Assembly: GCA_014360015.1 (NCBI GenBank)
Contig: JACIYJ010000004.1
Span: forward strand, 257,520-321,519
Source: Candidatus Aminicenantes bacterium
GTDB taxonomy: Bacteria > Acidobacteriota > Aminicenantia > Aminicenantales > Saccharicenantaceae
Direction: 5' to 3'
DNA: 64,000 bases
This document shows positions 14,053-20,438 of the stretch, in pieces (within the stretch, counting starts at the first letter, position 1; the number at the start of each line of letters is the position of its first letter). Made by a program: the position numbers and the translations under genes. The notes beneath the pieces are model-generated. The model was not told the origin of the DNA, searched no databases, and was given only the letters and a program-made list of their open reading frames with translations.

Positions 14053-14315
14053 AGCTTTATGATTTTATCACAACAATTAAAATTAATTCAGATTTTTACT
14101 CATTCATTCCGATATATTATGTTCTGATTATTATTTATTCCCAGCCCTGTTCCTCAAGATTTTTTTTAGCTTGTTGCTATAGGACAAATACCACGCAATC
14201 TTAAATAACAACACATTTTTGTTGAATTTTAATATTATTATTAATAAAATTTGATTCAATGTTATATAAGATTACATGGGACCCAGATTTGGATAATAAA
14301 TAAGGGGGAATTTAA

Positions 14316-15356
14316 ATGTCCCGTTATTTAATTACTGGGGGATCTGGTTATTTTGGTTCTGTGCTGGTTGAATATCTGCTTTCGCAGGGCCATGAATGTA
14401 TCAATGTGGATATTTGCCCACAAATTATCTCACATGAATCCTTAAAAACTTTTGAGATCGACATCAGAAATTATGAGGAACTCAAAAACATATTTGAATC
14501 ATGCGGTCCTTTTGATTCAGTCTTCCATCTGGCAGCCATGCTGGCCCACTCAGTTAAAGATAAAAAGGCTTTAATGGAAACAAACGTTCTCGGCACTGAA
14601 AATGTGGTCAAATTATGTGCAGAGTTTGGCATCAAAAACCTGGTTTTCACCTCCAGTAACTGCCTTTGGGCTAAACCATTCGGCCGTCCTGTAACCGAAG
14701 AAGATAAACCGGAACCCGTGGAAGTATATGGACTCTCAAAGATGAAGGCAGAGGAAGTTCTTTTTAACTACGCTGATAGAGTCAATTCTGCCATTCTGCG
14801 TGTGCCAACGATTATAAGCTCTGGTCGTCTCGGACTTCTGGCTATATTGTTTGAATTCATAGAAGAAAACAGAATTGTCTGGATGGTAGGGAAAGGGGAA
14901 AACCATTACCAGTTTATCTATGGACCCGACCTTGCCCAGGCTGCCCTTCTGGCTTCTACAATTAACCACACCCGAATTTATAATGTAGGGAGCGATCAGG
15001 TTAAGAGCTTAAAGGAGATTTATCGGTATGTAATAGACAGGGCCGGTTCAAAGTCTAAAATCAAGCACCTGCCCAGAGTGCCCGCCATTCTGGCTATGAA
15101 AATCGCCCACTTTTTAAAATTATCTCCACTCGGCCCCTACCACTATAAAATGATTGCCGAAAGTTTTGAATTTGATACCTCAAGAATAAAAAACGAATTG
15201 GGCTGGAAGCCAACAAAAACAAACGAAGAAATGCTTTTCGAAGCCTTTCTTTATTACAAAGAGCATAAAGATGAAATCCAAAAAAGGCAAATGGCTTCAG
15301 CCCATAGAAAGCCCGCAGAAATGGGAATAATTAAATTATTGAAATGGCTATCATAA
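14316..15356 (+). CDS. NAD-dependent sugar epimerase/dehydratase (extended SDR)
   Basis: An N-terminal Rossmann motif ITGGSGYFGS is followed by the YxxxK catalytic region (YGLSKMKAE). It is the first gene of the AT-rich island. Confidence 0.8.
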   Translation: MSRYLITGGSGYFGSVLVEYLLSQGHECINVDICPQIISHESLKTFEIDIRNYEELKNIFESCGPFDSVFHLAAMLAHSVKDKKALMETNVLGTENVVKLCAEFGIKNLVFTSSNCLWAKPFGRPVTEEDKPEPVEVYGLSKMKAEEVLFNYADRVNSAILRVPTIISSGRLGLLAILFEFIEENRIVWMVGKGENHYQFIYGPDLAQAALLASTINHTRIYNVGSDQVKSLKEIYRYVIDRAGSKSKIKHLPRVPAILAMKIAHFLKLSPLGPYHYKMIAESFEFDTSRIKNELGWKPTKTNEEMLFEAFLYYKEHKDEIQKRQMASAHRKPAEMGIIKLLKWLS

Positions 15357-18466: not shown

Positions 18467-20338
18467 TTAATGAATATAACCGAGTGATTTAATGTCTTCC
18501 AATTTTTTATTTCTGTCTTTTATCACTTCGTTTCGTATCACCGCCTCGGTATATTTATACTTTCTCATCACTGCCCTCAGTTTTACCACTTCAAGTTTTT
18601 CAGAATTGCTCAAATCTTTCTGCTCAAATGGATCGGTTGACAAATCATAAAGCTCATACCTCTCCCTGTATCCAGGGATAATATATCTCGTGATATCCCC
18701 AAAAAGCTCCAGGGTATCAGAGTGAACTTTACCGGTATTTTCAATAAGTTTCCACTGATTTACAATAAGGGCCTTTTTTTCATCACCAAGCAATATTATC
18801 TCTGAAAATATTTCTTTTCTGGCCCCTCTGATAATGCTGGATAGGTCTTTCCCCCTAAAAATTTCATTCTTTTCTTTTATTCCGGCAATCTGAAAAATAA
18901 TAGGCATTAAATCAACAAGTTGAACTGGCTTGTCTATTTTTTCTGGGATTAGATTATCGCCATATCCAATGATTAAGGGTATTTTTATGATTTCCTGATA
19001 TTGAGTATGTCCATGATCATAGCCGTTATGCTCAAAAAATTCTTCGCCATGGTCAGAAGTGAAAACAATTACCGTTTTATTTCTTAAATTCATCTCTTCG
19101 AGCTTATAAATTATATTTTTAAAATTAGAATCAACATAGTTTACGGCTCCATCATAAAGGCTTACCAGACCCTCTTTATCTTCTTGTTTTATTCCTATTA
19201 AATCCATTAGTCGGACATCAATGGTCTTAAAGTTCCCGGCCCGGAACAGCTGGTCAGGCCGAGCCCCAAATTTCTGTCCGTATTCTTCCGGGGCATCATA
19301 GGGGGCATGGGTATCAAAAAAATGCAGATAGGCGAAAAACTTTCTTTTTTTATTCTTTTCTAACCACTTAATAAAAGAGGCAGTGACATCATCAGCCCCA
19401 GCATTTGTCTTTTGAATATACTTATCAAATCCCTGGTCAAATCCATAATCTTTTGATAGAACAGGGTTGGTCTGAACAGCAAAAGTTTTATAACCAGAAT
19501 TTTTAAAGAATTCAGCAATCGTCTCCAATTGTTTACTTAAACTACTTTTCCAATAACACGCACCGTGCTGGTGAGGATAGAGCGACGTCATCAGGGTAGC
19601 AATCGACGGTTTGGTCCAGGATGCATTGGTGTAGGCATTCAGGAAAATCAGCGATTTAGCAGCAAATCTGTCAATATTAGGCGAGGTCACTTTTTCATAT
19701 CCATAACATCCAAGATGATCTGCCCTTAGAGCATCTGCAATTATTAAAATCACATTTGGTCCCTTTGGTTTATATATCATTTTATAGAGAAAAAGGCTAA
19801 GATTAACCAGAATAAGCACGACAAATGATATTATACTTATATACCTGAAGAAAGTTACAATTACATTATAAACCTTGACAATGTTAGGATACCGTAAATA
19901 TTTACTCCCCAAAGAAAAAGCCAGGGTTAAAAAAAACAATAACAGGATTTTTTGCCAGGAAAATAGATTTTTCGAAGCCAGCGTTAATGCTGTTATTCCC
20001 AGATAAAACAAAAAGCCAGCTAAAATTATTAAGAAAGCCTTTAACTTTGCAATCACAGGCCTTTCATATTGAAAACGTAAACCGAGTTTCTGGAGGCAAA
20101 TAAAAAATAGAAAGCCCGAGGAAATAAATATTAAAGCCGAAACAGTAGCCAAAATAATAAACCTGTTAACAAATTTCGTAAAAACAAGAAGAGAAAGATA
20201 ATATAACCCTTGTTCCAAATGAATAAAGACCTTAGTTTTTAAAGCTGATAAAACAAAACCTATAATTGATATGAATCCGAAATATCTAAAAATTACTATC
20301 AGGTTTAATTTTATCTTATTAGGCCTTTTTCTATCCAT
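18467..20338 (-). CDS. Membrane-anchored alkaline-phosphatase-superfamily transferase (LtaS/OpgB/EptA-like, sulfatase fold with Thr nucleophile)
   Basis: About 8 N-terminal TM helices are followed by a sulfatase-like domain (ILIIADALRADHLG). The canonical C-x-P-x-R motif is replaced by T-K-P-S-I, as in phosphoglycerol/phosphoethanolamine transferases. Confidence 0.65.
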   Translation of the reverse strand: MDRKRPNKIKLNLIVIFRYFGFISIIGFVLSALKTKVFIHLEQGLYYLSLLVFTKFVNRFIILATVSALIFISSGFLFFICLQKLGLRFQYERPVIAKLKAFLIILAGFLFYLGITALTLASKNLFSWQKILLLFFLTLAFSLGSKYLRYPNIVKVYNVIVTFFRYISIISFVVLILVNLSLFLYKMIYKPKGPNVILIIADALRADHLGCYGYEKVTSPNIDRFAAKSLIFLNAYTNASWTKPSIATLMTSLYPHQHGACYWKSSLSKQLETIAEFFKNSGYKTFAVQTNPVLSKDYGFDQGFDKYIQKTNAGADDVTASFIKWLEKNKKRKFFAYLHFFDTHAPYDAPEEYGQKFGARPDQLFRAGNFKTIDVRLMDLIGIKQEDKEGLVSLYDGAVNYVDSNFKNIIYKLEEMNLRNKTVIVFTSDHGEEFFEHNGYDHGHTQYQEIIKIPLIIGYGDNLIPEKIDKPVQLVDLMPIIFQIAGIKEKNEIFRGKDLSSIIRGARKEIFSEIILLGDEKKALIVNQWKLIENTGKVHSDTLELFGDITRYIIPGYRERYELYDLSTDPFEQKDLSNSEKLEVVKLRAVMRKYKYTEAVIRNEVIKDRNKKLEDIKSLGYIH

Positions 20339-20438
20339 TTATAATTGAGCTTATATTTCTTTTTAATCAAATTTAAAAATTAAGTCTTCTCTAAGCATTT
20401 TATATATTAAATTTAATCTCGATTAAAACGGTTCTGAT

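Follow-up and report, generated by a model that had tools for sequence, protein, structure and literature searches.

Four genes at the 3' end of a pilus cluster

The 64,000-nucleotide stretch of DNA analyzed here, referred to as the window, comes from a metagenome-assembled genome of Candidatus Aminicenantes. At positions 14053-20340 it carries a block of four genes, situated between plsC and the gene of a type IV prepilin, pilA. All four genes described in the first-pass annotation of the window, along with the motifs quoted for them, are present in the open reading frames and their translations. What that annotation missed is the pilin: the block occupies the 3' end of a type IV pilus cluster that runs pilB-pilT-pilC-pilS-pilR-pilA on the minus strand, and we read it as the accessory cassette of the pilin gene. 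The features of the locus are the following.

13357-14052, minus strand: plsC, the left neighbour of the block
14053-20340: the block of four genes
14053..14315, unstranded: divergent AT-rich intergenic region between plsC and the operon of the next three genes, recognized by reading the sequence
14316..15356, plus strand: extended short-chain dehydrogenase/reductase (SDR) of the NAD-dependent sugar epimerase/dehydratase family, 346 aa (Pfam Epimerase, 124 bits)
15344..17053, plus strand: GT-C-fold membrane glycosyltransferase, polytopic, 569 aa (assigned by fold and by a transitive profile link to PMT_2)
17050..18444, plus strand: FAD flavoprotein of the PRK07208 family, 464 aa (NCBIfam NF005548 at 657 bits)
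18467..20338, minus strand: membrane-anchored S1-sulfatase-fold enzyme with five transmembrane (TM) helices, 623 aa (Pfam Sulfatase, 174 bits)
20443..20470, minus strand: Rho-independent terminator just 3' of pilA (12-bp stem with 8 GC pairs, and a T-run)
20496..21059, minus strand: pilA, type IV major prepilin, 187 aa (Pfam N_methyl and T2SSG, orthologue alignment)
21128..21143, minus strand: sigma-54 promoter TGGCACatatcTTGCA, about 69 nt 5' of the pilA start codon, with a perfect -24/-12 consensus
21369..28318, minus strand: pilR, pilS, pilC, pilT and pilB (Sigma54_activat/Response_reg, 6TM_PilS/HisKA, T2SSF, T2SSE and MshEN+T2SSE, respectively)

The promoter TGGCACatatcTTGCA is the sole zero-mismatch match to the -24/-12 consensus in the 64 kb, and the gene adjoining pilA, pilR, encodes a sigma-54 activator. 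Downstream of this promoter come pilA, the terminator and then the sulfatase-like gene, which is the next gene 3' of pilA on the same strand; the SDR-GT-C-flavoprotein operon converges on this unit. The order of promoter, pilin, terminator and accessory gene is the hallmark of pilin-accessory cassettes, as defined for Pseudomonas aeruginosa (PMC11841053), and the window has the same order, with an accessory gene behind a Rho-independent terminator. By analogy, we propose that the terminator acts as an attenuator that sets the ratio of pilin to accessory-gene product. The pilA product ends in a Gly/Ser/Thr tail (...GGGTSGT), which is our proposed glycan acceptor.

The arrangement recurs in relatives, whose contigs we compared with the window as numbered related loci (L001, L003 and so on), L001 being from Ca. 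Saccharicenans. In L001, plsC is followed by an SDR-GT-C-FAD operon that converges on sulfatase-like-pilA-pilR-pilS-pilC, an order repeated in L008, L018, L019 and L020. A second architecture, SDR-GT-C-PMT_2-FAD-methyltransferase converging on pilA, is found in L003, L024 and L025, where the left flank is wholly different and the pilA flank is the same. The left flank thus varies (plsC in the window and L001, unrelated genes in L003 and L004), and the right flank is always pilA-pilR-pilS-pilC. A prepilin gene is reached in all seven Aminicenantes-type contigs that are long enough (the window, L001, L003, L018, L019, L020 and L024), and in 7 of 7 cases the module-linked Aminicenantes pilin has a tail of G/A/S/T residues, the last of which is Ser or Thr. 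Loci L001, L003 and L018 also share the pil gene order of the window and carry a near-identical hairpin 3' of pilA. A literature search on Aminicenantes pili returned nothing relevant.

Linkage to pilins extends beyond this phylum. In five Desulfobacterota/Rhodocyclales loci (L005, L006, L012, L013 and L014), a member of the GT-C family lies within ~7 kb of a prepilin gene and PilGHI-like ABC genes. The GT-C gene is accompanied there by those of the flavoprotein, GtrA and a second, unannotated protein of ~630-670 aa, with GT41/TPR proteins alongside. This second protein, labelled 'unk630', has no Pfam match and is always beside the GT-C in proteobacterial loci. The pilins joined to the GT-C/flavoprotein/GtrA module are very short and Geobacter-like, with a mature part of ~50-60 aa that is highly similar among them (...FSEYTKKGEDKAAQSDARN...).

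unk630: L005 5989-7935, L006 5328-7229, L009 4386-6287, L012 11727-13745, L013 6175-8076, L014 5750-7744, L039 3-1025
short Geobacter-like pilins: L005 282-859, L006 15727-15987, L012 16648-16890, L013 2869-3105, L014 439-756

Some features of the window around these genes may be recorded here. The divergent region at 14053..14315 presumably holds the promoter of the three-gene operon. A Shine-Dalgarno-like AAGGGGG precedes the ATG at 14316, and a sigma-70-like match lies at 14222-14250; such matches are as frequent in shuffled sequence, and sigma-70 promoter scans of the window gave no excess over it. A 17-nt perfect tandem duplication (ACACTTTTCTATCTACT x2) is found at 21340-21373, at the 3' end of pilR and upstream of the pilA sigma-54 promoter, and may be a candidate PilR binding element. 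Beyond pilB lie tRNA-Arg(tct) and tRNA-Pro(tgg) at 29913-30084 (minus strand), a PAS/HD-domain (HD_5) gene at 28671-29672 (plus strand) and mutL at 30184-31941 (minus strand).

Folds and active sites of the four proteins

None of the 45 members of the family to which the 569-aa membrane protein belongs has a Pfam or NCBIfam match, even at E<=1. An AlphaFold2 model built on the family alignment (pLDDT 91, pTM 0.91) matched AglB (5e-5), ArnT (TM-score 0.51/0.54), Pmt4, AftA, EmbA/B and STT3 in Foldseek at probability 1.0. PimE and ALG3 followed more weakly at 0.93-0.97, and non-GT-C folds all had a probability of at most 0.3. Against 1.84 billion representatives, the family profile recovered no more than 52 clusters at E<=1e-30. 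A second tier (1e-18 to 1e-14), set off by a sharp gap, covers only the N-terminal ~250 positions, and PMT_2 or PMT domains are present in 6 of 10 proteins sampled from it. The earlier label of this protein as GT-C-like is thus upheld: every confident structural match is a GT-C enzyme, and the family profile reaches PMT_2. By its modelled fold and its profile, the protein is a GT-C glycosyltransferase of a new and very small family, invisible to sequence models and comprising ~50 representative clusters among the 1.84 billion.

GT-C enzymes carry catalytic acidic residues just after the first TM helix. The corresponding motif in this family is HDEAEH, in which D44, E47 and H50 are invariant in the 45 sequences. 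In the model it lies at the start of the helix after TM1, which would place it, in the inferred orientation, on the first extracytoplasmic loop. The C-terminal domain (about 440-569) is modelled as mixed alpha/beta. Comparisons by hhalign revealed no similarity of the family to the neighbouring PMT_2 protein, and none to unk630. A polyprenyl-phosphate-linked donor is suggested only by the adjacency of GtrA to the GT-C gene in 10 related loci.

The genes of the plus-strand operon are tightly packed, the SDR gene overlapping the GT-C gene by 13 nt and the flavoprotein gene overlapping the GT-C stop by 4 nt. The model that the flavoprotein matches, NF005548, carries the name 'hypothetical protein', and a literature search for 'PRK07208' returned nothing relevant. 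The GAGPAGL and YTEKVWG motifs, on which the comparison with UDP-galactopyranose mutase (UGM) was first made, are present. Searched as a single sequence, the protein matches eukaryote-type UGM with an E-value of 2e-25 and 92 bits, at low identity, while the family profile matches the UGMs of Aspergillus fumigatus (AfUGM, 1.4e-36) and Trypanosoma cruzi (TcUGM, 9.8e-33) in the PDB over their full length. Amine oxidases, phytoene desaturases and protoporphyrinogen oxidases, considered as alternative identities, match only over the first ~70-90 residues, that is, the Rossmann segment. This decides against an amine-oxidase-type enzyme, an outcome that would have undone the earlier assignment. Nor has the protein any similarity to the DprE1-type FAD_binding_4 (VAO-type) family, its Pfam domains being Amino_oxidase and NAD_binding_8 only.

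At the level of single residues, of the 20 active-site positions of UGM that were checked, 15 are the same in all of 13 diverse family members. These are the equivalents of G62, H63, F66, Y104, F158, Y162, W167, R182, W315, Y317, R327, Y419, R447, Y453 and N457; R91 and S93 of the eukaryote-type NADPH site are likewise invariant. The residues were mapped through a HMMER alignment, with the numbering validated by the N207A residue of 4u8l, and their roles in UGM are documented (PMC4192007, PMC7662398). Sequence homology thus identifies the flavoprotein as a bacterial homologue of eukaryote-type UGM and predicts that it is a nucleotide-sugar pyranose/furanose mutase. The family is very large, with at least 8000 matches at E<=1e-20, and the combination of a conserved UGM active site and a constant association with GtrA and GT-C provides it with a testable function. 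If the protein is a mutase, thousands of annotations as 'NAD(P)/FAD-dependent oxidoreductase' or 'protoporphyrinogen oxidase' would be corrected. Many family members are labelled 'protoporphyrinogen oxidase' by JGI, and the UGM homology suggests that this label is wrong.

In the sulfatase-fold enzyme, the formylglycine motif C-x-P-x-R is replaced by T-K-P-S-I, so that Thr242 stands at the formylglycine position and the motif Arg is lost. The Thr in place of Cys that had been noted at the outset is therefore real, and it is invariant: D202, T242, D429, H430 and H442 are the same in all 37 family members, with the metal ligands D202, D429 and H430 kept. In an alignment to the choline sulfatase 7oz8, the Lys of the 'WRKTY' segment, which we take to be the sulfate-binding Lys of sulfatases, corresponds to the invariant His442. 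The AlphaFold2 model (pLDDT 85; helices 4-35, 46-84, 94-121, 126-147 and 151-188) matches S1 sulfatases at about 1e-25 in Foldseek, and sulfatases make up all of the best 50 matches listed.

The first description of this protein as LtaS/OpgB-like does not extend to its catalytic domain, which is nearest to true S1 sulfatases in both sequence and fold; it scores 48.5 bits against the cut-off of 561 for the EptA model and 16 against 970 for LtaS, and these scores, with the Foldseek results, rule out membership of the LtaS/EptA families. A true sulfatase function is ruled out as well, because there is no formylglycine motif. Features of LtaS/EptA/OpgB-type enzymes are nonetheless present, namely a Thr nucleophile, an N-terminal anchor of five TM helices and a catalytic domain that positive-inside analysis of the predicted topology puts outside the cytoplasm. 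Sequence and model together lead us to predict an extracytoplasmic phosphoester transferase or hydrolase, in which a sulfatase scaffold has been re-tooled to a Thr nucleophile. JGI labels the family 'arylsulfatase A-like' or 'choline-sulfatase', and the Thr motif suggests that these labels are wrong.

The SDR contains the GxxGxxG (TGGSGYFG) and YxxxK (YGLSK) motifs. Among NCBIfam models it scores best with GalE, reaching 104 bits where the cut-off is 262, and no equivalog model was passed; its best PDB matches are UDP-glucose 4-epimerases (4zrm at 2e-20). On sequence, it appears to be GalE-like. It is of the extended Epimerase type, and adh_short was below its cut-off when we considered the protein as a classical SDR of the DprE2 type. 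As a DprE1/DprE2 epimerase pair, the flavoprotein and SDR were rejected on both counts, having neither FAD_binding_4 nor a classical SDR domain; they may still be functional analogues of that pair.

A proposed pathway and the competing explanations

The four genes of the block form a functional unit, and the view of them as one module is borne out by other loci, where GT-C, flavoprotein, GtrA and sulfatase-like genes recur together as an operon. The GT-C and the flavoprotein share a locus in 23 of ~37 cases, most of the others being contigs that end early. In cultured bacteria, flavoproteins of 47-52% identity adjoin GT2/GT-A, GtrA and GT39 genes. A paralogous operon, PMT_2(GT-C)-flavoprotein-GtrA-sulfatase-like, is found in other Aminicenantes and Acidobacteriota, between the queuosine genes queCDE and queF; its GC content at third codon positions (GC3) equals that of its flanks, and the operon looks like a housekeeping form of the module. 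In L035 there are two copies of the GT-C family, together with a flavoprotein, a GT2, a DegT aminotransferase, a GFO/IDH oxidoreductase, LPG_synthase_TM and a secretin gene.

paralogous operon: L015 2796-8541, L016 5061-10887, L017 5080-10884
GT-C copies of L035: 4461-6404 and 9573-11573, with a further listed interval at 15652-17913

With moderate confidence, we take the block to be the accessory half of a cassette for a type IV pilin, one that serves to glycosylate this pilin outside the cytoplasm. The pilin is the most likely acceptor, ahead of a surface polymer or glycolipid of a general kind, and the reading we prefer is O-glycosylation of the pilin in the periplasm, with a furanose supplied by a lipid-linked donor. 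The GalE-like SDR and the UGM-type flavoprotein would act in the cytoplasm and turn a common nucleotide sugar into its furanose form, most likely by the route from UDP-Glc/UDP-Gal to UDP-galactofuranose (UDP-Galf) or a close analogue. The sugar would then be loaded onto polyprenyl phosphate and flipped, steps for which related loci offer a GT2/GT-A synthase and GtrA. On the periplasmic face, the GT-C might move it to Ser/Thr of the pilin, probably in the flexible C-terminal tail. The sulfatase-fold gene would be read by attenuated read-through from the sigma-54 pilA promoter, and its extracytoplasmic product, with its Thr nucleophile, may add or remove a phospho-substituent on the same product or on the lipid intermediate.

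The identity of the sugar lies between a Galf-type hexofuranose and a pentofuranose derived from phosphoribosyl pyrophosphate (PRPP). We rank first a Galf-type hexofuranose made at the nucleotide-sugar level, to which both the UGM-type active site and the GalE-like SDR point, and second a pentofuranose, because the flavoprotein keeps the UGM catalytic set and usually occurs without an SDR partner. If the flavoprotein is a mutase, a lipid-linked hexofuranose donor becomes a concrete hypothesis. A literature search linking UGM with pilin glycosylation returned nothing relevant. One may go further and suppose that PRK07208-type flavoproteins, as bacterial counterparts of eukaryotic UGM, occupy in these modules the genomic position that a lipid-sugar synthase usually has, and feed an undecaprenyl-phosphate (Und-P)-linked hexofuranose such as Und-P-Galf to the GT-C. 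In Aminicenantes, the GT-C would then O-furanosylate the C-terminal tail of the pilin and the Thr sulfatase-fold enzyme would add a phospho-substituent. Together they would make up a cassette of low GC that evolves fast and masks the pilin, perhaps under pressure from pilus-specific phages. As a whole this extended scheme is speculative, and we regard it as doubtful.

Several observations weigh against pilin furanosylation by the block. Probes for GT2, UbiA, PMT_2 and GtrA, taken from related loci, have no match in the 64-kb window, and the pathway is thus incomplete as encoded there, because neither a lipid-sugar synthase nor GtrA or another flippase is found. We know of no lipid-linked hexofuranose donor that has been described, and a literature search for one found none. 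The GT-C operon converges on pilA and does not follow it. Elsewhere, the GT-C of L010 sits in an exopolysaccharide (EPS)-type cluster of GT4 and pyruvyl-transferase genes, no prepilin is seen in the GT-C loci L028, L031 and L035, and the paralogous operon of L015-L017 is away from pilin genes. The flavoprotein itself fails the curated UGM model, TIGR00031, scoring 43.3 bits against a cut-off of 303.75 and covering the N-terminal 165 residues only. In its family the UGM flap at 203-209, NWGPNAT, is replaced by I-R-T-L-I-D-E, and an invariant Ile stands at the position of the catalytic Asn207, a residue that eases the furanose-forming step by lowering its barrier (PMC4192007). Of the earlier assignment to UGM, the full-length homology and a largely kept active site stand, but a bona fide Galf-making UGM does not.

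With the same cassette and the same pilin target, the sugar might instead be a PRPP-derived pentofuranose (Ribf, Araf or Xylf), which we think improbable. A UbiA of the decaprenyl-phosphate phosphoribosyltransferase (DPPRS) type, encoded elsewhere, would make polyprenyl-P-ribose-5-phosphate, and the Thr sulfatase-fold enzyme (PAP2 in other loci) would remove the 5-phosphate. The flavoprotein and SDR would epimerise the lipid-linked ribose as non-homologous analogues of DprE1/DprE2, and the GT-C would transfer the product. Such a pathway would reproduce, with non-homologous parts, the TfpW/D-arabinofuranose (D-Araf) system of P. aeruginosa, and it gives every block protein a role. The combination of SDR, FAD enzyme and GT-C (with GtrA) mirrors DprE2, DprE1, AftA and Rv3789; a PAP2 gene stands beside the flavoprotein in place of the sulfatase-like gene in L012 and L039, paralleling mycobacterial Rv3807c; and epimerisation of Und-P-Ribf by a GalE-like SDR is documented (PMC11127046). 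Moreover, UbiA and DUF362 form a two-gene cassette in which UbiA, at 290 and 306 bits, exceeds the curated DPPRS cut-off of 234. In L022 this cassette is inserted in the block, with plsC on one side and the SDR on the other, and in L015 it adjoins the paralogous operon.

UbiA and DUF362 cassette: L022 670-2661, L015 8549-10529

These are, however, the two loci of ~40 in which DPPRS is adjacent, and GT2/GT-A neighbours occur in several others, with GT2 as the donor synthase gene in L005, L030, L031, L035 and Methylomagnum. The flavoprotein retains the catalytic residues of UGM, those in contact with the UDP phosphates among them, and has no DprE1-type similarity. It also occurs without an SDR in most non-Aminicenantes loci and in L015-L017, whereas an analogue of DprE1 would need a reductase partner. 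Finally, the catalytic domain of the sulfatase-like enzyme is predicted to be outside the cytoplasm.

We likewise give a low probability to the view of the first-pass annotation, in which the module decorates a general envelope polymer or glycolipid (like lipopolysaccharide, lipoteichoic acid or lipoglycan) with furanose and phospho-alcohol groups, the neighbourhood of pilA being a permissive insertion site. It would accommodate the paralogous operon between the queuosine genes, far from pilins, and the EPS-type cluster of L010, and O antigens and teichoic acids are the classical targets of GT-C/GtrA systems (PMC11127046, PMC11194591). Yet adjacency to pilA recurs in three phyla with differing co-resident genes and opposite flanks, and by a rough estimate is well above the few percent expected for a random gene to lie within 10 kb of a prepilin gene. 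The conserved, terminator-attenuated arrangement of pilA and accessory gene points to the pilin, as do the Ser/Thr tails in which the linked pilins end and the low GC3 and elevated divergence that pilA shares with the block.

The unusual base composition of the block had been taken as the mark of a horizontally acquired module. The composition does drop sharply between plsC and the pilin gene. The block has a GC content of 37.1% against 46.5% in the remainder of the window; 6.3-kb non-overlapping windows have a mean of 46.9%, with a standard deviation (sd) of 1.3 and a minimum of 43.1, which puts the block ~7 sd lower (z about -7). The low GC first described is thus real, although the range given for it, 30-38%, fits the mean, and 500-bp windows inside the block span 29 to 45%. 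Tetranucleotide distance averages 0.0197 over the window (sd 0.0075) and reaches 0.0445 at 15001-20000, the strongest deviation in the window. The shift is located at silent sites, with a GC3 of 0.33-0.41 in the four block genes compared with 0.51-0.57 in plsC, pilR, pilS, pilC and the amidohydrolases; pilA, at 0.39, is also low.

The block is nevertheless present at the same site in L001, L008, L018 and L020, and at least four related Aminicenantes lineages have it there with a similarly low GC. Its GC3 in relatives is ~0.30-0.41 (0.37-0.51 in L003), while that of the flanks ranges from 0.43 to 0.75. Between relatives, the GT-C is 50-58% identical, the sulfatase-like protein 47-52% and pilA 61-64%, compared with 87-91% for pilR and pilC. 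Searches of the window showed no integrase or transposase domains among the open reading frames tested, no convincing direct repeats flanking the block and no tRNA near it (the nearest are at 29.9-30.1 kb), which agrees with what was first noted about its borders; an Rfam scan of the block found no RNA element.

A recently acquired genomic island is in our view very unlikely: the GC and tetranucleotide deviation is strong, and a GC3 that stays near 0.3-0.4 across host backgrounds of 0.43-0.75 is what a shared low-GC gene pool would give, but as a recent event it is largely refuted, because the block recurs, at an unchanged position and with the same low GC, in Ca. Saccharicenans and at least three other lineages, without integrase, border tRNA or flanking repeat, and with block proteins less alike than flanking proteins, which argues against a recent common transfer. 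The synteny of relatives, offered at the outset as a check on horizontal gain, hence speaks against it, whatever the GC of the host. A weaker variant is allele exchange at a fixed locus. A similar pattern is seen in surface-antigen and pilin-accessory loci, whose evolution is separate from that of the remaining genome, and high divergence of the GT-C, the sulfatase-like protein and pilA is expected of surface-exposed, co-evolving components. That the cassette stays low in GC in hosts whose own GC varies widely makes it a clean case of such a locus.

To the left of plsC, the window has a second low-GC patch at 12500-13300 (37-38% GC), in which an open reading frame at 12951-13295 (minus strand, 114 aa) resembles a truncated DUF234/Mrr_cat protein and is possibly a gene remnant. 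A SAM riboswitch at 9736-9853 (minus strand; Rfam RF00162, 62 bits against a gathering score of 44.4) lies upstream, on that strand, of genes left of the amidohydrolases, and L001 has an AdoMet synthase in that neighbourhood.

Comparison with known systems

The flavoprotein resembles eukaryote-type UGM, as known from A. fumigatus and T. cruzi, in its full-length homology, the His loop, the equivalents of Arg182, Arg327, Tyr419, Tyr453, Arg447 and Asn457, and the NADPH-site residues. It differs in its low identity, the replaced 203-209 flap, the change of Asn207 to Ile and the failure of TIGR00031. Enzymes of the PMT family glycosylate protein Ser/Thr from a polyprenyl-P-sugar. The GT-C of the block is like PMT, PMT_2 and ArnT in its fold, in a profile link over the N-terminal catalytic module and in a D-E motif at the start of loop 1, but it has no direct Pfam match and its C-terminal domain is different.

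As for the sulfatase-fold enzyme, Neisseria PptA/PptB and EptA/LtaS are also membrane-anchored members of the alkaline phosphatase superfamily with a Thr nucleophile and an extracytoplasmic domain, and in the present case the enzyme is tied to a pilin gene; the catalytic domain of the block enzyme belongs, in contrast, to the S1 sulfatase branch. In Neisseria, PptA modifies the pilin with phosphoethanolamine or phosphocholine (PMC4010543, PMC4569582).

The TfpO/PilO systems of P. aeruginosa 1244 and Acinetobacter share with the locus a pilin that ends in Ser/Thr and stands beside a dedicated modification gene. The pilin of strain 1244 is reportedly glycosylated at its C-terminal Ser. Unlike the proteins of the block, TfpO is an O-oligosaccharyltransferase of the Wzy_C type that uses Und-PP-O-antigen units, and there is no such protein in the window.

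Three-component systems of extracytoplasmic glycosylation consist of a synthase for a lipid-linked monosaccharide donor, a flippase and a GT-C, with optional epimerases (PMC11127046, PMC11194591). The locus is similar to GtrABC and to the pentofuranose systems (PMC11127046) in having a GT-C and, in related loci, GtrA and GT2 or DPPRS. It is different in that the window has no synthase or flippase and that the likely acceptor is a protein. In addition, a UGM-type flavoprotein is here the constant partner of the GT-C, while the main text of PMC11127046 contains neither 'FAD' nor 'galactofuranose'.

The closest known system is the TfpW/D-Araf cassette of P. aeruginosa group IV pilins (bioRxiv 10.1101/2020.04.19.049825; PMC11841053), which the locus resembles in logic without being a member. 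That cassette consists of TfpW (the GT-C), PPPRS, a phosphatase, a GtrA-like protein, DprE1 and DprE2, with a flavoenzyme and an SDR in donor synthesis. Both have a GT-C genetically tied to pilA and a terminator after pilA. A furanose from a polyprenyl-phosphate donor, with a flavoenzyme and an SDR in its synthesis, is used there and proposed here, and loci related to the block also have GtrA. The GT-C proteins differ in their motifs, that of the block having H-D-E-A-E-H on loop 1 with no DD, so that the DDX motif of TfpW is absent; the YX6PFX7P motif of loop 4 occurs in 0 of 45 family members, and the proline motif of EmbC is also absent. The block GT-C lacks a C-terminal TPR domain (it has no TPR match, and the modelled domain is mixed alpha/beta), and its gene is one gene away from pilA in a convergent operon instead of directly downstream. 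Furthermore, the flavoprotein is of the UGM type and not the DprE1 type, the SDR is extended and not classical, there is an extra sulfatase-fold enzyme, and no proteins are orthologous. What is known of pilin glycosylation cassettes and of three-component GT-C systems comes mainly from a small number of pathogens. If our interpretation is right, the block is a pilin-accessory, GT-C-based cassette for extracytoplasmic glycosylation in which the same logic is carried out in an uncultured phylum by non-orthologous parts.

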